Part shown: positions 2,221 through 64,000 of the stretch, in pieces
How positions within the stretch are numbered: the first letter of the stretch is position 1
Layout: every line of letters starts with the position of its first letter
Source: a bacterium
GTDB lineage: Bacteria; Patescibacteriota; Minisyncoccia; 2-02-FULL-40-12; IGHO2-12-FULL-4
NCBI GenBank assembly: GCA_030647955.1
Contig: JAUSIQ010000004.1
Location: forward strand, 36,533 to 100,532
Direction: 5' to 3'
Length of the DNA stretch: 64,000 bases
The notes under the pieces: model-generated
Database searches by the model: none
The model's input: only the letters and a program-made list of their open reading frames with translations
What the model was told of the DNA's origin: nothing
Program-made: the position numbers and the translations under genes

Positions 2221-3156
2221 TTATGCGTTTGAAAACTGATTTTGGCGGATGATCTGGTAACCCTTAATTAATTCGGCGATTCCGTCCTGGATAGAAAAGA
2301 TGGGTTTAAATCCAGTGGCCTCAATCTTGGCATTGCTGACAATGTAGTCGCGTTTATCGGGGTCTTCTCCGATTTCTGCGTTAATGAAGTAAAAATTAGG
2401 CAGTTGCTCTTTGATTTTCAAGCAGAGCTCTTCCTTACTCAAATTAGCGTTGCTTAAACCCACGTTGTAGGTTTGATGATTCATGGCTTCGAAATTATCC
2501 ATGCAGTGCAGGAAAGCCCTGACGACATCTCGGATATGAATAAAGTTTCGTTTTCGATGAGCCTCGAATAGAACAATAAAATTGTCTTTAACAGCTCGAT
2601 GCACGAAGTCATTGACCAGGAGGTCTAAGCGCATTCTGGGGCTGATGCCGAAAACTGTAGCTAAGCGCAGGGTTATTGCTCGAGGATGAGTTAGTGCCTT
2701 CTTTTCAGCTTCTATTTTAAGCCGTGCATAGAGAGAGACCGGATGTAGGGGGCTTTCTTCTGTACAGTAGCTAGTGCCTTGGCCGCTGCCATATCCGCTA
2801 TTAGTGGTGGGGTAAATTATTCTTTGATCATCGTGCAGCATAAAGATAAGGTCGTCCATCGACTCCTTAATCAGGGAACGAGCTGTCCAAGGATCACGAT
2901 CACAAAGAGGTGCGCCTACTAAGCAAGCCAGGGGGAAAATATATTCAACGTCTTTAGTATGCTGGCGAACTAGAGCGGTGTCTCGGGCATCTCCTTGCAC
3001 TATGGTCAAATTCTTATCATGGCAGCAGTCCAGTAGAGAGGTTTGATGGAACATAAAGTTATCGATTACGGTCACTGCATGCCCGTGTCTCAAAAGCTCA
3101 GGAACTAAGATAGAGCCGATATACCCGGCTCCACCCGTAACAAGGATTTTAGCCAT
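2221..3156 (-). CDS. NAD-dependent epimerase/dehydratase (extended SDR) acting on an NDP-sugar
   Basis: MAKILVTGGAGYIGS Rossmann N-terminus. The start is placed at the internal ATG (3156), which overlaps the upstream stop as ATGA/TAATG and has a GGAGG RBS. Confidence 0.75.
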   Translation of the reverse strand: MAKILVTGGAGYIGSILVPELLRHGHAVTVIDNFMFHQTSLLDCCHDKNLTIVQGDARDTALVRQHTKDVEYIFPLACLVGAPLCDRDPWTARSLIKESMDDLIFMLHDDQRIIYPTTNSGYGSGQGTSYCTEESPLHPVSLYARLKIEAEKKALTHPRAITLRLATVFGISPRMRLDLLVNDFVHRAVKDNFIVLFEAHRKRNFIHIRDVVRAFLHCMDNFEAMNHQTYNVGLSNANLSKEELCLKIKEQLPNFYFINAEIGEDPDKRDYIVSNAKIEATGFKPIFSIQDGIAELIKGYQIIRQNQFSNA

Positions 3157-4848: not shown

Positions 4849-4963
4849 GATAGCTCCTTATTTTTAAAGGTCGATTGGTTTTATAGTAGTATAATAGGTT
4901 GGATCGTCAACCCGCCTAAATTTTTAAAAATAAAAACTTAGGCGGGTCAATATTGACGTAAAT

Positions 4964-5629
4964 TTAATTAGGTGGGATGAGATTCTTTTCTAAACTTTTA
5001 AAATTTTGGATGATTTTGTTTGGCTTAGATTTAGAGAGAGTGTTTTTAGAGTGAAATCCCCAGGTGACAGCGATAGTTTTGAGGTCGACTTTTTGAGCGA
5101 CAAGGATGTCACCGACCGTGTCGGTGATCATGACGGTTTGTTGCGGTTGGGCCCCAGCTTTTTTTATGATAGCTCGCAGGGCCTCTTCTTTAGAATGGCC
5201 CTGGCTGCCGGAGACGAAAAAGAAGTATTTTTCTAAGCGATGCTTTTTTAAAACTTGCATGATTAATTCGCGCGGAGTGGAGGAGGCGATGGCCAGGGGA
5301 TAATGCTTGGATAACTTTTTAACGAGAGAAATAGCAAAAGGGAAAAGTCTGGGATTGGCGTAAGCTTCATCCAGTCCGGCTTGGCGATATTTTTGAAAAT
5401 TCTTGTACTGCTGATCATCTTTGGTGAAAGATCGAAAACTGGCGTGAACGTTGCCATTAAAAAAATCTCGATAAATTATTTTGGTTAACTTTAGACCAAC
5501 GCGAGCAAGAGCTTCTTTGTTAAGTTTAAAGAAGAGGTCAAAAGAATCTACTAAAACACCATCGAAATCAAAAATGATTAGCGATAGAGAGGATTTGGAG
5601 TTGGTTGAAGTTGTAATCGGCATAACCAT
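4964..5629 (-). CDS. HAD-family hydrolase (phosphatase / beta-phosphoglucomutase-like)
   Basis: IIFDFDGVLVDS motif I. The start is uncertain. The ORF overlaps the upstream cupin gene by about 60 nt. Confidence 0.6.
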   Translation of the reverse strand: MVMPITTSTNSKSSLSLIIFDFDGVLVDSFDLFFKLNKEALARVGLKLTKIIYRDFFNGNVHASFRSFTKDDQQYKNFQKYRQAGLDEAYANPRLFPFAISLVKKLSKHYPLAIASSTPRELIMQVLKKHRLEKYFFFVSGSQGHSKEEALRAIIKKAGAQPQQTVMITDTVGDILVAQKVDLKTIAVTWGFHSKNTLSKSKPNKIIQNFKSLEKNLIPPN

Positions 5630-6314
5630 TACTAGTTAATTCTTCTAGGCTCACAATATCAGAAGGTCCCCAGAGTTGTTCGTCATTTCGAGACAGAACT
5701 TGTCCGTTCATGATGGCTAATAAAGTTCGGGGTCCGTGCTGAAGATTGCGAAGTTCGGCGGAATGATTAAGAGAGTGTAAGCAGAGACGAGATTGCCCTA
5801 AGTTTTTATGAATATTATGCTCGGAAGAATGAAAGCGGGTATGAGTGGCCAAGATTTGAAAGGCTTTGTCGGCACCCTCATAGCCTTCGTTGACTCTGCC
5901 ATATTTATCTTCGAGGCGAATAAGATCGTGTTTCATGGGCGGGGTTTCAAATTCCAAGACCCGCACTCCGGTCTTGGAAAGGCCTTGAGTGGAATGAAAG
6001 ACACCGGGTTCGATCATCACAGCATCGAGAGCGGAAAGTTCCATGGATTCGTTTAAAGAAGAAAAGAGAGCGTTGCCTTCTAAAACCACCAGAGCCGTCT
6101 TTTTGCGAGGATGGCAGTGCATGGAGGTCGCTTTGTTGTGACCGATGAAAAGACTCCAGGTTTCCACTTGCGGAGTGCTGATCATGAGATACTCATTTCC
6201 CCAGGGTTTATTGACGGCTAATGTGGAGAAATCAACACTGGCCGTGTGGGCAATAGGCGAGCGTAGCTCGAGATATTTTTTATCCAGTAAAGATTGGGTA
6301 AGCTTCTTGATCAT
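5568..6314 (-). CDS. Cupin-type sugar-phosphate isomerase (mannose-6-phosphate isomerase type II C-terminal-domain-like)
   Basis: KPWGNEYLMIS...HCHPRKKTALVVLEGNA cupin motifs. Confidence 0.55.
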   Translation of the reverse strand: MIKKLTQSLLDKKYLELRSPIAHTASVDFSTLAVNKPWGNEYLMISTPQVETWSLFIGHNKATSMHCHPRKKTALVVLEGNALFSSLNESMELSALDAVMIEPGVFHSTQGLSKTGVRVLEFETPPMKHDLIRLEDKYGRVNEGYEGADKAFQILATHTRFHSSEHNIHKNLGQSRLCLHSLNHSAELRNLQHGPRTLLAIMNGQVLSRNDEQLWGPSDIVSLEELTSNGYADYNFNQLQILSIANHF

Positions 6315-7857: not shown

Positions 7858-8747
7858 GGTTGCTCTCCTGGCAGTTTTTGTGCCCATAACAAACTTATCT
7901 TGTCTTGAGTTTCGATCTCAATATCCTCAGCTTCTCTTTGTAGTCCCAGTCGAGCTACTTCTTCTTTGATAAGAGAGAAACGGTCCCACTCTGGAGGGCC
8001 ATCGCATCCGGTTCCGGCATGCCAGACTGCTCGAGCAGTATGAATGTTCATAAAAGCAGGGAGTTCTTGGCTTAAAATTCTGGTCTGGTGCATGATGAGC
8101 CAAGGATCGTCGGTAATTTCTACGGCACGAAGTTTGAAAGCGCTGGCTACTTCGGCCATATGCCAATTACGACGAACTTTTTTTTCGGTCAGGATGGATA
8201 AATTGTTATCGGCACAGACAAATAAGACGGGAGCTTTCTTTGTGGAAGCCAATCCCAAGGCGGCGAGTACATAATCTTCTTCGGCACTAGCATCGCCCAT
8301 TACTGCTAAAGTTCTTTGGCCGGCGCCAAAAGCATAACCTATCGCAATAGGAACCTGGGTTCCCATGAAGCCGTCATGCCCGAACATTTTAATGGCGGGG
8401 CTATGAATAGAAGCCGAACCACCCATGCCGCTGGTACAGCCTGTAGGGCGGTGAAGTAATTCGTCTCGCAGAGCGGTAGGATCGCCGCCGTATGCTAAAT
8501 AAAGATCATGACAGCGGTGCTGACCAAAAATGGCCGGGTTAGGAAAGGCGACCGCTAAGGCCGAAGAAATAGATTCTTGGCCAAGAGAGAGATAGATAGG
8601 GCATTTGATTAGTTTCTTTTCCGCTGCTTCCTTAACTTTGAATTCAAAAAATCTCGAGAAGCAAACTTTACTGAACATCGCCAGGGTATCCTCCCGACTG
8701 CATTTAGCAGTCAAACCCGGAAGTAGTCCGTAGTCTTTGGAGCGCAT
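7854..8747 (-). CDS. Transketolase-family N-terminal subunit (TPP-binding)
   Basis: TPP-binding GDASAEED and HDGFMG motifs. 297 aa. Confidence 0.75.
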   Translation of the reverse strand: MRSKDYGLLPGLTAKCSREDTLAMFSKVCFSRFFEFKVKEAAEKKLIKCPIYLSLGQESISSALAVAFPNPAIFGQHRCHDLYLAYGGDPTALRDELLHRPTGCTSGMGGSASIHSPAIKMFGHDGFMGTQVPIAIGYAFGAGQRTLAVMGDASAEEDYVLAALGLASTKKAPVLFVCADNNLSILTEKKVRRNWHMAEVASAFKLRAVEITDDPWLIMHQTRILSQELPAFMNIHTARAVWHAGTGCDGPPEWDRFSLIKEEVARLGLQREAEDIEIETQDKISLLWAQKLPGEQP

Positions 8748-8831
8748 TAGTCCCCCTAATTTTTAAATAGCTTTGTTCCTAGAGTAATGAATGATTTGAC
8801 TAGTGTCAACAAGACATTATGTTGTTCGAGA

Positions 8832-10700
8832 CTAATTATGAATAAATGCGTTGAGTGCTTTGCGCGTTATCTCTCCAAAATAGCCGGAGACTGGCCGCAC
8901 ACTGTATTTTTCTTGAAGTCTTTTCACTGCCTCGCGGGTAATATGGCCAAAATAACCCGTAATTAAGTCCGCGGAATAGTTAACCTCGTTGACTAAAAGG
9001 ACCTGGAGCTGTTTGACGTCGTGGCCGATGGAGCCGAGAGTGAGATCTCTGGAGAAACCAGCCAAATTTTCGTTATAAGGCGAGAATGAAGAAGAGGCAG
9101 TTGAAGAACTGTAAGTTACAGTATTGGACTCTGTGCCGATGGAAGAAGAAGAACAAGTATAGTTACTATTACAACCCAAAACCTTATATTTATAGGAATA
9201 ACCATTAACAAAGGCTTCGTCCCCCACTGAACCCCAGGCATGCGTGTCGTTATAAGTATAAGTAGAGCCGTTCTTTAAAGTAGAACCAATCCACACACCA
9301 CAGGCACCAGTTGAAAAATCTCCTCCGTTGACACTCCTATAGACACAGTACAGTGGTGCCCCTGAATCCGGCCAGCTTAAGGTGATTTTTCCAGTACCGA
9401 GAGTAGCTGTTACCGAAGAGGGTGGGTTGTAAGTAACAGGTGTGGGTGTCGGTGTCGGTGTCGGTAAGGCCGGCATAGAGGCCTGTATGGTATATTTAAC
9501 GTTTTGGTTCACGCAATCGATGACATATCCATCGAGCGGAAATTCAGACTGAAGAATATCTACGGTTCCACTGGTAATGGGAGATTTGGGACATGGGGTA
9601 GTGCCATTTTTAGGACTACCTCCCCATATGAATCCTCCGTTGGATTTGTTCACTAAGAATTCACTAAGGCCATCGGGGTCACTGAGTGTTAGAGAATACT
9701 TTACGTTGTCATACTGACCGACAAATAACCGTTCAGCCGCGAGAGAGCTGTTGCTGGGATTGCTAACTGGGGTCGGAGTTGGAACTGGGGTAGAAGTTGA
9801 TGTGGGAGTGGGAGTGGGAGTGGGAGTGGGAGTGGGAGTATGTGATGTAGAAGCCGTAGTCGAAGGGACTGATGACGTTGTGACGGGTGAAGGGGTAAGA
9901 CTGGGAGAGATACTTATGGTCGGTGTCGGAGAAAATGATAAAGAAGCAGTTGGCGATGGCGAATAAGTTACGGTGGGAGTAACAGTGGGGATAGGAGTTG
10001 AAGCTGGATTGACCGTAGAACACTGCCCCACCGTGTCTCCATGGGCGAAGTGTGCTTTGATGGCCGAGGCATCAATGGTGATAGTATTGGCTTCCAGGGG
10101 ATTACCTGACGGATAATGACAGATAACAACTTTACCCACTTCTTTGATGGCGGCATTGGCATCAAGTTTTTCTTCCATTGATGGCTTATGGCCCGGGTTA
10201 ATTCTTTGATAATCAGGAACATCTTTAACGGTATTAAAAGAACTGCCCTTCTGATACCAGTTGAATTCCTTGTTGTTAATACAAAAGACTTTTTTGAAAA
10301 AGTCGGGGTCGTCTTTGACGGCCTGCTCTCCAGTGGTGTTCACCCAGCGGAGCTTGCCGGTATCTTCCCCGCTGATATCTACGCCATAAACTTTGGAGTC
10401 TTTACTCTCGCAATCACGGAAGAGACCAGAGGTGGGGAAGGCCTCCTTTACTTCCTTAGAAACCAATTTTACATTGAAGAACCCTCCCAGATGACCGTAA
10501 AACTTGAAAATCTCGGGATTGAGGAATAAACGCTTGTAGCCCTGGTCATTGATGATGAAGACATCCGGGTCATCGGAGAAGATAGCGCTGATTAAATCGC
10601 CGTCTTTCAAAGCATAATCTGATGGATTAACTGCGAGGACTAGTTCCGTGCTGAAGATCACTAAGAAAAATAATCCCAGAGCCAAGAGTGTTTTGTTCAT
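8832..10700 (-). CDS. Secreted cell-surface protein: signal peptide, conserved N-terminal domain, Thr/Pro-rich linkers, C-terminal putative peptidoglycan-binding (PG_binding_1-like) domain
   Basis: MNKTLLALGLFFLVIFSTELVLA signal peptide. PTPTPTPTPTPT linkers. C-terminal GHDVKQLQVLL...GYFGHITREAVKRLQEKY...GYFGEITRKAL repeats. The N-terminal domain is a paralog of the C-terminal domain of the 41007..42842 protein. Confidence 0.6.
   Translation of the reverse strand: MNKTLLALGLFFLVIFSTELVLAVNPSDYALKDGDLISAIFSDDPDVFIINDQGYKRLFLNPEIFKFYGHLGGFFNVKLVSKEVKEAFPTSGLFRDCESKDSKVYGVDISGEDTGKLRWVNTTGEQAVKDDPDFFKKVFCINNKEFNWYQKGSSFNTVKDVPDYQRINPGHKPSMEEKLDANAAIKEVGKVVICHYPSGNPLEANTITIDASAIKAHFAHGDTVGQCSTVNPASTPIPTVTPTVTYSPSPTASLSFSPTPTISISPSLTPSPVTTSSVPSTTASTSHTPTPTPTPTPTPTSTSTPVPTPTPVSNPSNSSLAAERLFVGQYDNVKYSLTLSDPDGLSEFLVNKSNGGFIWGGSPKNGTTPCPKSPITSGTVDILQSEFPLDGYVIDCVNQNVKYTIQASMPALPTPTPTPTPVTYNPPSSVTATLGTGKITLSWPDSGAPLYCVYRSVNGGDFSTGACGVWIGSTLKNGSTYTYNDTHAWGSVGDEAFVNGYSYKYKVLGCNSNYTCSSSSIGTESNTVTYSSSTASSSFSPYNENLAGFSRDLTLGSIGHDVKQLQVLLVNEVNYSADLITGYFGHITREAVKRLQEKYSVRPVSGYFGEITRKALNAFIHN
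9800..9842 (-). repeat. Coding hexanucleotide microsatellite (GGGAGT)n encoding the (PT)n linker
   Basis: gggagtgggagtgggagtgggagtgggagt on the + strand, inside a CDS. Confidence 0.9.
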
Positions 10701-30834: not shown

Positions 30835-31593
30835 GTGGATGAACAAGATTTTTCCAAGGTTGCGATCAAGCTGATTCCGACCTATAACGAGAAAGAAAAT
30901 ATCGCCTCCCTAACGCAGGCGGTTTTTAATTTGTATCCGCACACTTCGATGATGGTCTTGGATGACAACTCTCCGGATGGTACGGCCCAGGCAGTGCGCA
31001 ATCTCCAAGTGCTTTTTCCGAATTTATATTTAAATCAAAGAACTAGCGATCGCGGCTTCGGCAAATCTTATTTAGAAGGTTTTAAAAAAGTATTGGCCGA
31101 CGATCGTTATAAAGCCATCGTAATGATGGATGCGGATTTTTCTCATGATCCGAAAGTGATTGGTAGTATGCTAGAGAAATTAAAAGATTACGAAGTGGTT
31201 AATGGTTCACGCTATATTTCGGGTGGAAAAATTGAAAACTGGAAGTGGCATCGACGGCTCTTAAGTAATTTTGCCAATTTTTATGTACGCACAATTTTAC
31301 GTGTTCCTTTGCAGGACATGACGACTGGCTTTGTTTGTTTGCGCAAAGATGCTTTACAGCGAGTGGATTTAAATACTATTTATTCAGATGGTTATGCTTT
31401 TTTGGTGGAGTTGAAGTATAAATTACTCCAAACCGGCAGTCGTTTTTATGAGTTTCCGATTGTTTATACAGAGCGTCGCGAGGGTGGCTCAAAGATGTCT
31501 TCGCGGGTGATTTGGGAGTCGATCTGGCTTCCCTGGAAATTATGTTTTAAAACCTCCCCGCTAAAAAAGCAGGTATCTAGTAGAAGTACTTAG
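30835..31593 (+). CDS. GT2 polyprenyl-phosphate glycosyltransferase (DPM1/GtrB/ArnC-like)
   Basis: VLDDNSPDGT and DADFSHDP (DxD) motifs. 252 aa. GTG start. Confidence 0.75.
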   Translation: MDEQDFSKVAIKLIPTYNEKENIASLTQAVFNLYPHTSMMVLDDNSPDGTAQAVRNLQVLFPNLYLNQRTSDRGFGKSYLEGFKKVLADDRYKAIVMMDADFSHDPKVIGSMLEKLKDYEVVNGSRYISGGKIENWKWHRRLLSNFANFYVRTILRVPLQDMTTGFVCLRKDALQRVDLNTIYSDGYAFLVELKYKLLQTGSRFYEFPIVYTERREGGSKMSSRVIWESIWLPWKLCFKTSPLKKQVSSRST

Positions 31594-31605
31594 TAAATAC
31601 TACTT

Positions 31606-31776
31606 TCGAAGGCGTATGAGGTCTGTGGATTGCTTAGCGACTTGTTTTTATAGTCCATTCGTTTCGAATAAGATATAAAAATGAGGAGTTGGTCGGAAAA
31701 GTCTGCTTTTCGGAATCCACAGACCGAACCGAGTGAGTTTTTCTCGCTGGAAGAAAAACGAGCATCCGGAGAAAGT
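31606..31776 (+). ncRNA. Structured RNA element, copy 1 of a two-copy family (second copy 62468-62640)
   Basis: About 85% identity to copy 2 in conserved blocks (CUGUGGAUUGCU, UCCRUUCGUUUCGRAUAAGAU, CUUUUCGRAAUCCAYAGACCG, CUCGCYGGAAG, CGAGCRUCCGGAGAAAG). Three helices show compensatory changes. G-U and U-G pairs occur only in the + strand reading. Confidence 0.55.
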
Positions 31777-31820
31777 AGTGTTTACTAAGCTGGGTTTGGC
31801 CAGTTGTGAATTCATAAAAT

Positions 31821-34094
31821 TTGTGGTATTTTTCGTCTATGCAAGACTCGAAGTTAGCTTCCGTTCTCAAATATGGGCTTTATGCTGTAGCGCTGATGCC
31901 CCTCATTATTTTTAAGGAATATCTCTCCCCATTTCATTTCGGAAAGGTGGTTATTTTTAGAGCCTGGATAGAGATTCTGGCTGTTTTTTATCTCTTTTTG
32001 ATTTTCAAGGATCGCAGCTATCTCCCCAAGACTAATCCCATTTTTTGGGCGGTAACCATTTTTACCGCCATTTTTGGTCTCACCACTTTAACGGGGGCTG
32101 ATATTTACCAGAGTTTTTGGGGCACGTTAGAAAGAATGGGTGGATGGTTTACCTATTTCCATTTCTGGATGTTTTTTGTCATGGCGGTGGGGGTTTTAAA
32201 GAAGCAGGAAGATTGGATTACTTTTTTAAAAATTTCGGTAGTGACCAGTTTTATCTCCACTCTTTACGGTTTCTTACAGAAGACCGACATTGAAGCGGTG
32301 GTCGGGTCGGGAGGACGCTCTAGAATTTTCGGAACGATTGGTAACCCGGCTCTATTTGCAGGGTATGAACTGCTCAATGTTTTCTTTGCTCTACTGTTGG
32401 CATTTTGGAAAAAGATTTCCAAGAATGGGAGAGCTTTCTATGCTGTGATTATGCTGGTTAATCTGATAGCCATCTTCTCTACGGCAGTAAGAGGTTCTTT
32501 GTTGGCGGCTGTAGTCGCCTTAGGACTGTTTTCTTTTTTCTATACTTATTTGGGCGGAGCACAGAAGTGGCGTCGTTTAATGATCGGTGGAGTGGCCTTG
32601 CTGATTATTTTGGAGGGTATTCTAATTCTGAACCACAATGCTTCATTTGTTCAAAATAGTCCCTACCTGTCCCGTTTGTCGGACGCATCTTTAAGTACCA
32701 GAACGGTTAATACGCGTTTTTGGGCATGGGAGTCTGGCATCGACGGATGGAACGACAGTCTAAAAACTATCGTAGTAGGCTGGGGACCGGAGAACTTTAA
32801 TCTACCCTTCTCCAAGCACTTTAATCCGAAGTTTTATCTTGGTCCGGGATCCGAAACTCTTTTCGATCGGGGACACAATATGTTTGTGGAAGTCTTGGTG
32901 ACCATGGGATTAATTGGCTTCCTATCTTATCTGTGGGTGTTTGGAGTTTTATCTGTAGGATTAAGAAAAGTTTTTAAACATGCCAAATCAAGTGATGAAA
33001 AGGTAGCCGCGGCTAGTCTCTCTGCCGGCTTGGCGGCCTATATCATCCATAATGCATTTATCTTCGATACTTCCGCCAATCTCATGATGTTTTTCTTGGC
33101 AGCGGGGTTTATTTATAGCCTGGTACAGAGCTTGGTTCCTGCGGAGGAGACGACGGTTAAAGCTAAAAGAGTGCCATGGCGTGTTACGGCTTTTCCGGCG
33201 ATGCTGACCATTGTGGTTGCTTCTATTTTGGTCATATTCTCTATTCATCAAACTAGTATTAAGCCCGCATTAGCGAACTATGCTTCTACTCGTGGGATCG
33301 TGGCTTCTTGGGGCGGCAAAAATAACGAGGCGGTTAATAAATTCGAGGAGGCCTTGGCTTACAATACTTTTGGTGAGTATGAAATTAGACATCGCTATAC
33401 CCAATTTGTTTTAGAAAATATTTCGAAATTTCCTGCGGAGGAAAGAGCGGATTTACTCTTGGGAGTTATTGATCACGCTAAGAAAAATATCCATGCCGGT
33501 GATAAAGATTATTTACCATATCTTTACATTAGCCGTTCCTACATTCTTTTGGGACGAGGTGATCCCAAGTCTCCTTATAACGATTTGGCCCTGGATAATA
33601 GTCTACACGCTTTGAGTATTGCCCCGGATTTTATCCGTACTTATTTCGAAGTCGGCCAAGCTTATCTAAATAAAAAAGAATTTGCCAAGGCTGGAGAATA
33701 TTTTGAGAAAGCCGCTAAGCTCAACCCGGATGTGGGCATCTCCTATTGGTATTGGGCGGCGACCGTGTTTGATACGGGTGATTTAGACAGAGCTTTGGAA
33801 TTAGTAGATTTGGCTGAAGAGAAGGGCTATGTCTTAACGGACGCGGATTATTTGCGAATACTGGCAGTTTACTCCCAAAAAAATAATTATAAAAGGGTGG
33901 CGGAAATTTACGAAGTGATTGTGATTGAAAGAGGATCGAATATTGCTCAATACAGTGCTTCTTTGGCGGCGACATATCAAAAGATTGGCAATATAGATGG
34001 AGCGGAAAAAATGGCTCGTCGCGCCGCGGAGCTTGATCCAAGCTTTGAATCCGAGGCAAAAAGTTTTATTGAGAGCCTGGGAAGAAAATACTAA
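31821..34094 (+). CDS. O-antigen ligase/polymerase-like (Wzy_C) membrane domain fused to C-terminal TPR repeats
   Basis: Multi-TM N-terminus with RGHNMFVEVLVTMGLIGF (Wzy_C motif). C-terminal TPR-like repeats (AYLNKKEFAKAGEYFEKAAKLNPD). The likely start is ATG 31839. The track uses TTG 31821. Confidence 0.7.
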   Translation: MWYFSSMQDSKLASVLKYGLYAVALMPLIIFKEYLSPFHFGKVVIFRAWIEILAVFYLFLIFKDRSYLPKTNPIFWAVTIFTAIFGLTTLTGADIYQSFWGTLERMGGWFTYFHFWMFFVMAVGVLKKQEDWITFLKISVVTSFISTLYGFLQKTDIEAVVGSGGRSRIFGTIGNPALFAGYELLNVFFALLLAFWKKISKNGRAFYAVIMLVNLIAIFSTAVRGSLLAAVVALGLFSFFYTYLGGAQKWRRLMIGGVALLIILEGILILNHNASFVQNSPYLSRLSDASLSTRTVNTRFWAWESGIDGWNDSLKTIVVGWGPENFNLPFSKHFNPKFYLGPGSETLFDRGHNMFVEVLVTMGLIGFLSYLWVFGVLSVGLRKVFKHAKSSDEKVAAASLSAGLAAYIIHNAFIFDTSANLMMFFLAAGFIYSLVQSLVPAEETTVKAKRVPWRVTAFPAMLTIVVASILVIFSIHQTSIKPALANYASTRGIVASWGGKNNEAVNKFEEALAYNTFGEYEIRHRYTQFVLENISKFPAEERADLLLGVIDHAKKNIHAGDKDYLPYLYISRSYILLGRGDPKSPYNDLALDNSLHALSIAPDFIRTYFEVGQAYLNKKEFAKAGEYFEKAAKLNPDVGISYWYWAATVFDTGDLDRALELVDLAEEKGYVLTDADYLRILAVYSQKNNYKRVAEIYEVIVIERGSNIAQYSASLAATYQKIGNIDGAEKMARRAAELDPSFESEAKSFIESLGRKY

Positions 34095-61511: not shown

Positions 61512-62201
61512 ATGAAAATTTTAGTAATTTTAATTATTATCGCAGTCGTGGCCGTGGGAACATGGTTTTTCTTAAAGGATCGGGGAGAAGAAGTTGGTCT
61601 TAGTCCTTCGCCTACTCCTTCTGTCGAAGTAACCACTTCTCCATCTTCTTCTGCTGAACCTATTATGGACGTACAAGAAAAAGTAGCGGTGAAGATGGAA
61701 ACCGCTCGCGGGACAATTGAGTTGGAACTTTACTCTAAAGTGGCCCCGAAAACAGTTTTGAATTTTATCAGCTTAGCGCAAAAGGGTTATTATGACGGTA
61801 CCAAGTTTCACCGCGTAGTGGATGATTTTGTGATACAGGGCGGAGATCCGTTGTCTCGTACTGATGATCCGCGCGTAGGCACGGGCGGACCGGGCTATAT
61901 GTTCGAGGATGAAATTAATCCCAAGGTTTTGGGAGTACCAGCCGAAGTGATCACGCAGTACGAAGCGGCAGGGTATAAGTATGATTACAATCTAAAATCT
62001 TTGCCGAATATGGTGGGGGCGATTTCCATGGCTAATGCCGGTCCGAACACTAACGGCAGTCAGTTCTTTATCATTACCACTAAAGACCAGCCCTTCTTAA
62101 ACGGTAAGCACACGGTGTTTGGAAAAGTAACCAAAGGGATGGATGTGGTATTGAAAATCAAGCAAGGCGACTTGGTTAAAAAAGTAACGGTTAGTTTATA
62201 A
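61512..62201 (+). CDS. Cyclophilin-type peptidyl-prolyl cis-trans isomerase with N-terminal membrane anchor/signal
   Basis: [15 protein letters not shown] and [16 protein letters not shown] cyclophilin motifs. N-terminal hydrophobic helix. Confidence 0.85.
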
Positions 62202-62467
62202 AAAGAAAAGGGGCCGGCAGCATCGCGTGCTACCGGCCCGGGCGACCGTCCACATAATGCCATGAGCCTACGGTCCCGAAGCTCCGGCAGACCCCGACTG
62301 GCTTAATTCTCTTTTGGGTCTGGGGTGACCCTTGGAGAATATTTCCCGCGTCGCTTACAGAAGAAGTAGAATCGGCGGGAAATGGTCGCGACTCAACTCC
62401 TGTGTTAATAATAGCATATTAGGCCCCGCCTTGTCAATAGTGATTATGTAGCGCAGTGCATGTTGCT

Positions 62468-62640
62468 TTCGTAGGCTCTGCGGGCTGTGGATTGCTCGCG
62501 AACCTCCGTTTGCAGCCCATCCGTTTCGGATAAGATGCAAACGGAGGTTCGCTGGACGGAAAGATACTGATCTTTTCGAATCCATAGACCGCAAAGAGCG
62601 AAGTTGGCTCGCCGGAAGCCAACGAGCGTCCGGAGAAAGC
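62468..62640 (+). ncRNA. Structured RNA element, copy 2 (paralog of 31606-31776), 38 nt upstream of the RecB-family nuclease gene
   Basis: Same conserved blocks as copy 1. A 17-bp perfect helix GCGAACCTCCGTTTGCA/TGCAAACGGAGGTTCGC replaces the 10-bp U/A-rich helix of copy 1. Hairpin ATCCGtttCGGAT corresponds to ATTCGtttCGAAT in copy 1. Confidence 0.55.
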
Positions 62641-62677
62641 AATATGCACGAAGCTTTTATGCTAAACTGCGATCAAG

Positions 62678-64000
62678 ATGACTACCAAGCAAAAACTCAC
62701 CGCCGAGCATTTCTATAAATTTTTCCAATGCCCGCACTGGCTGTGGTATGACTTGTATGAAGATCAGCAAAAGAAAAAAGGCGTTCCTCCGCTGATGAAC
62801 ATGATCTATGAGGACGGACTTAAGCATGAAAAGAATGTCATGCAGTCGCGTAAGTTCGACGAGTTACCCGCGGGGGCGTCGCAAGATTTGGACGAATCTT
62901 TTTTGGCAACCGTGGAGTTGATGAAAAAAGGGCGTAATATTTATCACGGGGTGTTGATGGATGAGCATTGGGTGGGTATTCCGGATTTGCTCGAGGCGCG
63001 ACCGATGAGCGAGTTGGGGATGAGTGGAGCCCGTTCCAAGTTTGGGGACCACTATTATGTTGTCTATGACGTCAAAAGCGGCAAAGAGTTGCGCGATGAA
63101 TATAAATTTCAATTAGTTTTTTACAGTTTGATTTTAGAGCGTATTCAGGGAGTGCGGCCCAAGGAGGCTTTCATCGTTAATGGTGATGGAGAAGAGCGCT
63201 CATTCTTGATTGATGATTTCTTGGACTATTTTCATCTCACTCGAGAGACGATCGAGAAGATTCTGGACGGAGAAAAACCGCCTCCATTTTTAAAAAGCGG
63301 TTGCAAAAGAACACCGTGGTATAGTTTGTGCGTATCGGAAGCGGAAAGCTGTCGCGACGTTTCTTTGATTTACCGCTTGAGCCAGATGGACCAAAAAGAA
63401 CTTTACAATGTTGGGATTAAAACGATTGATGACTTTGCCAATACGAGCATGGAGACCCTCCAATCAAAGTTGGAGGGTTGGAATTTTGATAAACTGATCC
63501 GCTTTCACAATCAGGCCCAATCTTTGGTGCGCGATGAGCCGCTCATTTTAAAGCATCCTGCTTTTCCCAAAGTAAAAACCGAGATCTATTTTGATATTGA
63601 AAGTGACCCTACTCAAAACATAGATTATCTTTTGGGTATCCTTGTGAAAAATACGGAGACGGACAAAACTGAATATAAAGACTTTTTTGCCAACGATAAA
63701 TCGGAAGAGGAAAAGATTTGGAAAGAGTTTATTGAATTTTTGGATAAGCAAGATGATTTTGTGATTTACCACTATGCTTTTTATGAGCGGCAGGTTTTTG
63801 ACCGGCTTTATTTGCGCTACGGAGCGCCGAGTGAAGTGGTAGAGAAGTTTAAGAATAATACGATTGATCTGCATCGCTCGGTAGTGGATACCGTCATCTT
63901 GCCTTTGTATTTTTATAGTCTCAAAGACGTGGCGCGCTATATCGGCTTTCAATGGAAGGCGGCAGATGCCGGCGGAGCGGAATCGGTGGTATGGTACAAC
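62678..64000 (+). CDS. RecB-family nuclease (TM0106-like: PD-(D/E)xK/Cas4-like N-domain plus RNase H-like exonuclease C-domain); 3' end beyond the window
   Basis: MTTKQKLTAEHFYKFFQCPHWLWYD N-terminus. VVYDVKSGKE (D/ExK). Four Cys (CPHW...GCKRTPWYSLCVSEAESC). C-terminal IYFDIESDP DEDD motif. No stop before the window end. Confidence 0.6.
   Translation, partial: MTTKQKLTAEHFYKFFQCPHWLWYDLYEDQQKKKGVPPLMNMIYEDGLKHEKNVMQSRKFDELPAGASQDLDESFLATVELMKKGRNIYHGVLMDEHWVGIPDLLEARPMSELGMSGARSKFGDHYYVVYDVKSGKELRDEYKFQLVFYSLILERIQGVRPKEAFIVNGDGEERSFLIDDFLDYFHLTRETIEKILDGEKPPPFLKSGCKRTPWYSLCVSEAESCRDVSLIYRLSQMDQKELYNVGIKTIDDFANTSMETLQSKLEGWNFDKLIRFHNQAQSLVRDEPLILKHPAFPKVKTEIYFDIESDPTQNIDYLLGILVKNTETDKTEYKDFFANDKSEEEKIWKEFIEFLDKQDDFVIYHYAFYERQVFDRLYLRYGAPSEVVEKFKNNTIDLHRSVVDTVILPLYFYSLKDVARYIGFQWKAADAGGAESVVWYN

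Follow-up and report, generated by a model that had tools for sequence, protein, structure and literature searches.

A dispersed, covarying structured element of groundwater Parcubacteria, possibly acting as RNA

The Correia elements of Neisseria (CREE/NEMIS) and the ERIC/IRU sequences of enterobacteria are non-coding repeats that occupy intergenic DNA in either orientation, measure roughly 100-200 bp and have inverted ends. Both kinds occur in long and short forms and make long hairpins when transcribed, and some carry a -10-like TATAAT. Correia hairpins are cut by RNase III; Correia elements are moreover bounded by fixed terminal repeats of 26 bp, duplicate a TA target and are present in many near-identical copies. 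The intervening sequences (IVSs) of 23S rRNA are sporadic inserts of about 100-200 nt, whose ends pair in a long stem and which RNase III excises. Multi-copy motifs with inconsistent orientation have been filed by the Breaker laboratory as "mobile/repeat sequence candidates" (PMC11109978). Here we describe a family of structured elements of 145-240 nt, two copies of which lie in a 64-kb stretch of contig JAUSIQ010000004.1 (hereafter the window) from a bacterium of the candidate phyla radiation (CPR, Patescibacteria). The CPR makes up a large share of bacterial diversity, its genomes are tiny, and next to nothing has been reported on the biology of its non-coding RNA; in literature searches on structured RNAs or miniature inverted-repeat transposable elements (MITEs) of these bacteria no such element was found described. 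The copies form an undescribed family of structured single-stranded nucleic acid, the fold of which is kept by selection through compensatory change.

An earlier note on this DNA had pointed to two segments, 31606-31776 and 62468-62640, that share conserved blocks, together with three helices that differ in sequence between the copies and remain complementary, and all of these blocks and helices were located at those positions. In a MAFFT alignment copies 1 and 2 have a column identity of 81% over wider segments and 83% over the core; when all family copies are clustered, the two are 74% identical across shared columns. RNAalifold predicts 54 common pairs for the two sequences, 11 of which are changed on both sides with the pairing kept. 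The doubly changed pairs include the hairpin ATTCG/CGAAT, which becomes ATCCG/CGGAT in copy 2, the hairpin GTTTTTC/GAAAAAC, which becomes GTTGGC/GCCAAC, and pairs of a long variable hairpin, and by this measure the three compensatory helices are confirmed. Compared with dinucleotide shuffles, the folds of copies 1 and 2 reach z = -5.1 and -7.0, respectively. A covariance model built from these two copies (R1) scores them at 215 bits (copy 1, 31596-31784) and 214 bits (copy 2, 62459-62648), and its next-best match in the window, with filters off, has 17 bits. A repeat finder lists just two substantial dispersed repeats for the window, the element being one of them, and an nhmmer profile made from a 50-sequence alignment detected no further copy there. 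The extents given earlier, 171 and 173 nt, were too short: the folds of both copies brought out an outer closing stem, P1, that had been overlooked, and the elements actually span 31589-31789 and 62450-62655. BLAST similarity to other copies reaches about 31581-31791 for copy 1 and about 62448-62660 for copy 2.

What had been taken for a family of two copies is larger. A two-block pattern from the 3' half of the element retrieved 37 loci from JGI metagenomes, mostly from groundwater, and none from IMG/VR. The earlier note had proposed a covariance-model search for more copies; run with R1 on 341 kb of loci, it recovered 50 matches with 45 distinct sequences (contigs and loci compared with the window are designated below by L-numbers). 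The hosts are some groundwater Parcubacteria, CPR bacteria resembling Candidatus Yanofskybacteria. The same note had made its helices depend on covariation among additional copies, and this is what the family alignment displays: 36 of the 54 pairs are changed on both sides, standard pairs occupy 95.6% of pair cells versus 40-52% in controls with the 3' partners shifted by 1-3 columns, and none of 500 shuffles attains any of the observed covariation measures. Compensatory changes spotted by eye have led to a genuine family. Three copies are found on each of the contigs L113 and L108, and two on each of L114, L099, L096, L084 and L092; either strand is used among these multi-copy contigs, and on several contigs the density is 2-3 copies per 10-20 kb. 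Two head-to-head pairs were seen (L092:2425-2867 and L106:2-342), with the 5' ends facing each other 45-75 nt apart. A further sample of DNA was fetched via neighbouring proteins and not via the element itself. In this sample there are two copies in the 64 kb of the window, two in 21.5 kb (L084), two in 19.5 kb (L129), one divergent copy in 7.7 kb (L126) and none in L082, L083, L087, L127 and L131 (12-21.5 kb each), from which we estimate about one copy per 10-30 kb in carriers and a patchy distribution among relatives.

The element folds as one strand, closed by P1. This stem has a median length of 22 bp (range 12-47 bp) and runs into non-conserved sequence. Counted from its inner end, pairing is at least 87% at positions 1-15, dips at positions 16-18, stands at 85-92% at positions 19-21 and is random beyond position 24. 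Positions 16-18 form a 3x3 loop, GUA opposite GAA or GGA, in about a quarter of the copies and UUG/CAA pairs in others. Both the inner end CUUUUG/AAAAAG and the outer part AGCUUGG/CCAAGCU are conserved; the middle block of about 7 bp is different in almost every copy, with complementarity kept. Inside P1 lie a purine-rich internal loop (GAA opposite GGA) and then a three-way junction, the 5' joining strand of which has the family-wide conserved sequence G(A/G/U)AG(G/A)C, with GG/CC covarying to GA/UC. One arm of the junction consists of P2a, variable and covarying, and of P2, CUGUGGAUU/AAUCCACAG, which is nearly invariant in this set. P2 bears an exchangeable apical module, either P3 with P4 (long form) or P4 alone (short form, about 145 nt), and in a few copies other hairpins replace it. 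P3 of the long form is a variable stem with the cap CCCAU-hairpin-AUAAGAU. In about 60% of the copies, of both forms, the loop of P4 starts with G-UAUAAU and ends with a pyrimidine-rich stretch and CA; in the two copies of the window this loop is short and has no UAUAAU motif. The second arm is the 3' domain, composed of GAGCGAG, the P5 hairpin with the loop CGCUGGAA, and then CGAGCGUCCGGA; these blocks show 100% conservation between the two orthologues of a pair outside the window. A divergent member in L126, the closest sampled relative (1224-1376, 21 bits with R1), has the same architecture, with a long P1, the junction and the P5 loop CUCGCUGGGG, and a P2 that is entirely different in sequence and still paired. 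Thus the family is wider than the sequence-anchored searches reached. As a side observation, the P4-loop motif, for instance in L098:1077-1277, L089:2880-3071 and L120:1283-1425, resembles a -10 box with a start site. We do not favour a promoter reading of TATAAT: no -35 or extended -10 element stands alongside it and it has no directional preference.

The earlier statement that no known RNA family fits agrees with the results obtained with Rfam 15 (4,227 models). There is no match anywhere in the window at gathering thresholds, and at E values up to 10 the two copies gave chance hairpin matches only, the best of which, below threshold, is P35, whose 25.5 bits fall short of its gathering score of 70 (E = 0.071). 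A scan of the 64 kb for tRNA and tmRNA found none. Single-block DNA patterns gave 31 and 48 matches in viral contigs, roughly the chance number, and none was upheld by nhmmer; three further viral scans gave 0, 0 and 3 matches, all rejected by R1, with no sign of a phage vehicle. A two-block pattern applied to genome contigs of GTDB representatives had one match, in Bryobacteraceae, that R1 rejected as well; apparently these representatives do not include the source genome and its relatives, or the blocks differ there. Several likenesses were considered and abandoned, namely to the P/Q/R/S elements of group I introns, to the hammerhead core CUGANGA...GAAA, to the domain IV sequence of the signal recognition particle RNA and to P4 of RNase P; in each case the pairing scheme is unfit and the Rfam models are silent. 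A guide-RNA function was rejected, as the variable segments match flanking DNA no better than chance. An apparent small open reading frame (ORF) of 12 codons through P3 and P4 is conserved neither in frame nor in sequence. An upstream module was suggested by the roughly 250 nt that separate many copies from the upstream gene, but these stretches are mutually unrelated. In a scan of covarying column pairs for extra pseudoknots the signal was swamped by subfamily structure.

The sense of the folded strand has been considered separately. The earlier note had assigned the element to the + strand on the ground of its wobble pairs. This assignment finds moderate support in folding energies: in 35 of 42 copies the sense strand has the lower minimum free energy (mean difference 4.2 kcal/mol, Wilcoxon p = 6e-5), and since the G+U content is 0.51, composition does not explain the bias; the wobble argument itself is weak, as the asymmetry of G.U versus A.C is not significant. 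The recurrent non-Watson-Crick positions are purine-purine in the element-sense orientation. The GC skew is positive with respect to element orientation at 14 loci and negative at 23, which mirrors gene orientation only, and reveals no replication-strand bias of the IS200/IS605 kind. Because of the sense-strand stability, the purine-purine mismatches and the branched junction with conserved loops, we favour an RNA of the element-sense strand, as far as sequence features can indicate, with a DNA or single-stranded-DNA mechanism as the main rival.

All copies are intergenic. Where both neighbours are visible, 18 copies are antisense and 12 are sense to a co-directional gene pair, and 8 lie between convergent or divergent genes; the antisense copies score as high with R1 as the sense copies. 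The neighbours are unrelated housekeeping genes (such as MreB, RF2, FtsE, ParB and RecB-like), and further ones encode MurG, GT4 glycosyltransferases, methyltransferases and an XerC/D-like recombinase. The element is independent of the orientation and the function of the neighbouring genes. Its 3' end is usually about 20 nt or less from the neighbour, and in some copies P1 overlaps a stop codon; the two window elements end 29-49 nt before start codons. Upstream sigma-70-like matches are no better than those on the opposite side (mean 6.5 versus 6.0 of 12) and occur at scattered distances; the copies have no conserved promoter upstream of P1 and no U-tract after it. An XerC/D-like tyrosine recombinase gene adjoins the element at L091:257-1213, L095:2037-2831 and L107:1245-2168. 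The three genes are orthologous (77-88% identical) and stand in three different arrangements relative to the element, which may be coincidental or may hint at a mobilising enzyme.

Presence and absence of the element could be compared at three sites. The site between the cyclophilin and RecB-like genes measures 476 nt in the window versus 44 nt in L082 and 49 nt in L083, and in L084, L087 and L088 it is occupied by a reverse-strand gene instead. The site between the GT2 and ligase genes measures 245 nt in the window versus 55 nt in L126 and 63 nt in L127 and L128. Between a DUF8128 and a TrwB-like gene there are 198 nt with an antisense short-form copy in L084; the same genes overlap or stand 12-15 nt apart in L082, L083 and L087. 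Thus copies occur at new intergenic sites and are missing from the same sites of close relatives, which is mobile- or repeat-like behaviour. No consistent target-site duplication was found at the maximal inverted-repeat ends of 39 copies, and none is visible at the three filled-versus-empty sites. Copies on one contig fall in different sequence clusters, which are common to several contigs, and this argues that there was no recent burst. Two copies of different subfamilies, L113:7642-7843 and L113:8946-9168, form a mosaic pair with an identical internal stretch of 47 nt, which suggests recombination or gene conversion between copies.

Other copies are orthologous between genomes: those between prfB and ftsE in L089 and L120, those next to mreB in L099 and L108, and those next to murG in L108 and L114. 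In the L089/L120 pair the conserved blocks are identical, including the P4 loop GUAUAAU(A/U)UUUCAC, and compensated replacements have changed 7 of 9 pairs in the P4 stem as well as the variable block of P1. In the flanking genes, identity at four-fold degenerate sites is only 48-49%. At the prfB-ftsE locus the element is under purifying selection, against the picture of decaying insertions. The L089 copy (2880-3071) has an extra hairpin of about 49 nt between P2a and P2 relative to its L120 orthologue; helices can therefore be added without loss of the conserved blocks.

The coordinates of both window copies and of the adjacent genes are collected in Table 1. The stop codon TAG of the GT2 gene (31591-31593) is inside P1 of copy 1, and the C-terminal tail of the protein exceeds those in L126 and L127 by 7-9 amino acids and is unrelated to them. 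It appears that the insertion of copy 1 replaced the original end of the gene, including the stop codon. The start codon of the downstream gene, ATG at 31839, was set by alignment with relatives. The closest relatives of the RecB-like nuclease are named in their sources as Candidatus Yanofskybacteria, Parcubacteria group or Patescibacteria group, and the window contig recurs in a Logan assembly (L080).

Table 1. Positions of the two copies of the element, their parts and the adjacent genes in the window
Feature	Position	Strand	Remarks
Copy 1, whole element including full P1	31589..31789	+	201 nt; R1 match, P1 extension and BLAST span
Copy 1, P1 5' strand, CTTAGTAAATACTACTTTC	31589..31607	+	19 bp with 31771-31789, one U.G
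Copy 1, P1 3' strand, GAAAGTAGTGTTTACTAAG	31771..31789	+	partner of 31589-31607
Copy 1, conserved 5' joining strand GAAGGC... and P2a 5' strand	31608..31622	+	
Copy 1, P2 5' strand, CTGTGGATT	31623..31631	+	near-invariant in family; partner 31714-31722
Copy 1, P3 long variable hairpin	31633..31692	+	fold; covariation in helices 4 and 5
Copy 1, P3b conserved apical module CCATTCG-TTT-CGAATAAGAT	31657-31669	+	
Copy 1, P4 hairpin, short loop without UAUAAU motif	31696..31711	+	helix 6: 8 of 8 pairs covary
Copy 1, P2 3' strand, AATCCACAG, and P2a 3' strand	31714..31725	+	
Copy 1, 3' domain: GAGYGA, P5 hairpin, CGAGCATCCGGA	31726..31770	+	
Copy 1, P5 hairpin, loop TCGCTGGAA	31737-31759	+	helix 8: 6 of 7 pairs covary
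GT2 / polyprenol monophosphomannose synthase, upstream of copy 1	30835..31593	+	Pfam PF00535
Wzy_C (O-antigen-ligase-like) and TPR membrane protein, downstream of copy 1	31839..34094	+	
Copy 2, whole element with P1 and distal AGC/GCT extension	62450..62655	+	206 nt; R1 match, flank pairing, BLAST; AGC/GCT pairs lie further out than P1, past a small internal loop
Copy 2, P1 5' strand, GTGCATGTTGCTTTC	62456..62470	+	pairs with 62635-62649, one G.U
Copy 2, P1 3' strand, GAAAGCAATATGCAC	62635..62649	+	
Copy 2, P2 5' strand, CTGTGGATT	62485..62493	+	partner AATCCATAG, G.U included
Copy 2, P2 3' strand, AATCCATAG	62579..62587	+	
Copy 2, P3, 17-bp GC-rich hairpin	62498..62552	+	cap ATCCG-TTT-CGGAT at 62519-62531
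Copy 2, P4 hairpin, CGGAAAGAT-ACTG-ATCTTTTCG	62557..62578	+	
Copy 2, P5 hairpin, GTTGGC-TCGCCGGAA-GCCAAC	62603..62623	+	
Cyclophilin-type peptidyl-prolyl isomerase, upstream of copy 2	61512..62201	+	
TM0106-family RecB-like nuclease, downstream of copy 2	62678..64000	+	runs off the window; 487 amino acids in L080

Some further observations concern the surroundings. A surface-glycan cluster (flippase, GT2, Wzy_C, sugar transferase, epimerases, carbamoyltransferase) takes up much of the window, the + strand of which has a positive GC skew throughout. Between the cyclophilin stop codon and copy 2 is a GC-rich spacer of 257 nt (62202-62458) with a terminator-like hairpin at 62211-62239. This sequence is missing from the 44-49 nt spacers of the relatives, has a fold z of only -2.2, and has neither a credible Rfam match (62190-62470 searched) nor a homologue among the compared loci; it may be a second inserted or non-coding feature. 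The other dispersed repeat of the window (57783-57861 and 58571-58649) is a hairpin-forming unit of 79 nt, unrelated in sequence to the element. Its two copies are 84% identical, differ by compensatory changes (CCATCAAAG/TTTGATGG versus CCACCAAAG/TTTGGTGG) and end with GGGGAG(A/G)TG, like a ribosome-binding site with a start codon. In L129 a called gene (4952-6211) runs through an element, giving an epimerase of 419 amino acids versus 237 in the sister contig L130, and an ORF of 66 amino acids overlies a short-form copy (8714-8914); these gene calls are likely annotation artefacts that the element brings about.

Taken with moderate confidence, our reading is that the family is a non-coding, repeat-like, dispersed element, structured and active as one strand, which is most likely RNA. 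It has no coding capacity, since the stems vary by compensation and not by codon, and it is probably mobile. The earlier note had left three options, a novel small RNA, a mobile structured module and a shared cis-regulatory leader; we favour the mobile or dispersed module because there are multiple copies per contig, in both orientations, and empty sites in close relatives, and the leader is disfavoured by the balance of antisense and sense copies and by the unrelated neighbours. The folded molecule would be the element-sense RNA, read from the + strand for both window copies. P1, about two helical turns long, could serve as a double-strand-specific, RNase III-type processing stem or as an insulating stem, and its cleavage would free the conserved core from any host transcript, in the way known from rRNA precursors, the IVSs and transcribed Correia elements. 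We read P1 as a processing or insulating stem because it keeps about two turns whatever its sequence, pairing into non-conserved flanks; its duplex is long enough for RNase III, with the median of 22 bp and at least 85% pairing to position 21. The near-invariant P2, the junction strands and the loop motifs may represent protein recognition surfaces or a catalytic core, and this core, as a protein-bound or self-acting RNA, would serve the upkeep of the element itself and not the adjacent glycan-ligase and RecB-like genes.

A number of points weigh against this interpretation. We infer RNase III processing at P1 purely from helix length. As no conserved promoter precedes P1, no U-tract follows it, and more than half of the copies are antisense and equally intact, a strand-specific RNA would need an unseen promoter. 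The surroundings of the copies examined yielded no transposase, reverse transcriptase or HUH gene (Pfam, window ORFs and 10 neighbour ORFs), and target-site duplications are lacking, as described above. At each individual site the polymorphism may reflect loss in the relatives instead of gain. The G.U and A.C mispairs number 33:22 in P1 and 24:14 in the inner helices, neither ratio being significant. Finally, the hairpin loops are rarely GNRA or UNCG, and several are GAA triloops (GCGAAGC), which are very stable in DNA too.

Some of these points would be expected of a DNA-level or single-stranded-DNA mobile element, the hairpins of which are recognised by a trans-encoded transposase or recombinase, any RNA being incidental; a Correia-like MITE, an integron attC or CTX-phi attP substrate and a REP/RAYT-like unit are the comparators. 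We consider this possible, albeit somewhat unlikely. It agrees with the lack of orientation preference with respect to genes and of promoter or terminator, with the frequent GAA triloops and the insignificant excess of G.U over A.C, with the presence/absence polymorphism at the three sites, with the tyrosine recombinase in three loci, and with the resemblance of P1 to terminal inverted repeats with conserved ends, some copies ending GTAG...CTAC. However, the inverted repeat runs into non-conserved sequence over 12 to 47 bp, unlike a fixed transposon end, and a branched five-helix fold with purine-rich loops, in which every helix covaries, is not needed by known DNA transposon ends. The missing target-site duplication, the unbiased GC skew (14 versus 23), the better folding of the sense strand and the lack of a transposase among the scanned ORFs also speak against it, as do the old and divergent within-genome copies, with no near-identical burst, and the orthologous copy under purifying selection. 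A bolder proposal, to which we give a low probability, is a mobile structured RNA class specific to the CPR, the three-way-junction core of which would itself be active; it would move to further intergenic sites with no protein gene beside it, and selection would retain it once inserted. Such a core might be a self-processing ribozyme or the RNA subunit of an unknown ribonucleoprotein. Lower still we place vertically inherited, independently transcribed small-RNA genes, paralogues of one ribonucleoprotein or regulatory RNA. Such genes would explain why same-contig copies belong to different, old clusters common to several genomes, why orthologous copies are conserved under selection and why the fold is complex with conserved loops; but neither a conserved promoter nor a conserved terminator came to light, the upstream gene is often only a few nucleotides away and in one case its stop codon lies within the element, close relatives lack the element at three independent sites, and the copy density in carriers beside none in 16-21 kb of several relatives would be unusual.

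The element could also be regarded as an inverton, in which the arms of P1 are inverted recombinase sites (a conserved arm, a matching 7-bp crossover block and a second conserved arm) and an internal TATAAT promoter is flipped for the adjacent genes, for instance those for surface glycans. In size (about 200 bp) and arm length (about 22 bp) the element is like known invertible promoters, the 7-bp block differs from one element to the next and always matches within one, and the P4 loop of most copies holds the G-TATAAT, pyrimidine-rich stretch and CA; moreover, both orientations occur across loci, copy 1 and several others sit in glycan gene clusters, and the tyrosine recombinase is adjacent in three loci. 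Nevertheless, this would account for P1 only, and P2a, P3, P4 and P5 covary strongly too. The window copies are without TATAAT and the others without a -35 element; of the copies with TATAAT, 10 point towards a downstream gene and 12 into a convergent one; the orientation is the same in 6 independently reassembled loci and at the 3 orthologous sites, a small sample; and most neighbours are housekeeping genes (MreB, RF2, FtsE, ParB, RecB-like). We therefore hold the inverton to be very improbable. A shared cis-regulatory leader or riboswitch for downstream genes, suggested by the fact that each window copy precedes a gene on its own strand, is already contradicted, and we leave it next to no probability. 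Orientation, neighbours and the lack of promoter and U-tract exclude it, in agreement with the earlier opinion that this is not a classic metabolite riboswitch: 18 copies are antisense to both neighbours, several follow directly after a stop codon, the neighbours have no functional theme, and the same genes occur in relatives without the element. In addition, there is neither an expression platform nor a terminator, and the GGAG of the 3' block is 47-70 nt from the start codons.

In a genome of about 1 Mb, where intergenic space is scarce, the element takes up a noticeable part of that space, and it is conserved at orthologous sites despite its repeat-like behaviour, which calls for an explanation. 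If it acts as RNA, it would be a new class with a complex fold, a candidate ribozyme or ribonucleoprotein, and a selfish module under selection at the host or element level; if it acts as DNA, it would point to an unknown structure-specific mobilisation system. In either case a family model would improve the annotation of CPR genomes, in which gene calls run through the element (L129) or extend into it (the GT2 tail).

Among known systems, the structured RNAs associated with mobile elements, namely the omega-RNAs of HEARO/IscB and TnpB, the bridge RNA of IS110, the msr-msd of retrons and group II introns, are likewise multi-copy, have 150-300 nt and form complex folds; a selfish element depends on their structure, and pairing often joins their ends. 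In these systems, however, a protein is encoded alongside (IscB, TnpB, a DEDD recombinase or a reverse transcriptase, respectively) and a guide or template segment is free, whereas here no such protein ORF is adjacent among the ORFs scanned, the variable segments are all internally paired and none matches flanking DNA; the Rfam models of the omega-RNA, bridge RNA, retron and group II families gave no match. REP/RAYT units are imperfect palindromes of 20-40 nt headed by GTAG and served by a Y1 transposase, in contrast to the 145-240 nt of the branched element; GTAG...CTAC termini occur in a minority of copies only, and no Y1 transposase is present among the scanned ORFs of the window and the neighbours. 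The PATE elements of the IS200/IS605 group have non-inverted ends with subterminal hairpins and an orientation tied to the replication strand, whereas the ends of this element are inverted repeats. Invertible promoters (fimS, Bacteroides capsular polysaccharide) share with it the length of about 200 bp, inverted repeats of about 20 bp, an internal TATAAT, occurrence in either orientation and a frequent association with glycan genes, and differ from it in view of its internal covariation, the window copies without TATAAT, the lack of a -35 element and the constant orientation at loci. The IVSs are inserts within rRNA genes and have no conserved branched fold in their interior; the element described here is intergenic between protein genes.

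The mobile/repeat class of the Breaker laboratory is defined by copy number and orientation in a way that the element fits (PMC11109978). That class is usually tied to transposase, integrase, nuclease or helicase genes, whereas the element has no such consistent neighbour, and in covariation and complexity of the fold it is nearer to large functional non-coding RNAs. Like the Correia and ERIC repeats, the element is non-coding and intergenic, with inverted ends, module-based long and short forms and either orientation. It differs from Correia elements by the lack of a duplication, by the variable but paired block in a closing stem of variable length, by old and divergent copies, by a branched five-helix fold under purifying selection and by its CPR host. 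Thus it is a member of none of these groups by sequence or defining features, and by behaviour its closest counterparts are Correia/NEMIS, ERIC and the mobile/repeat candidate class.

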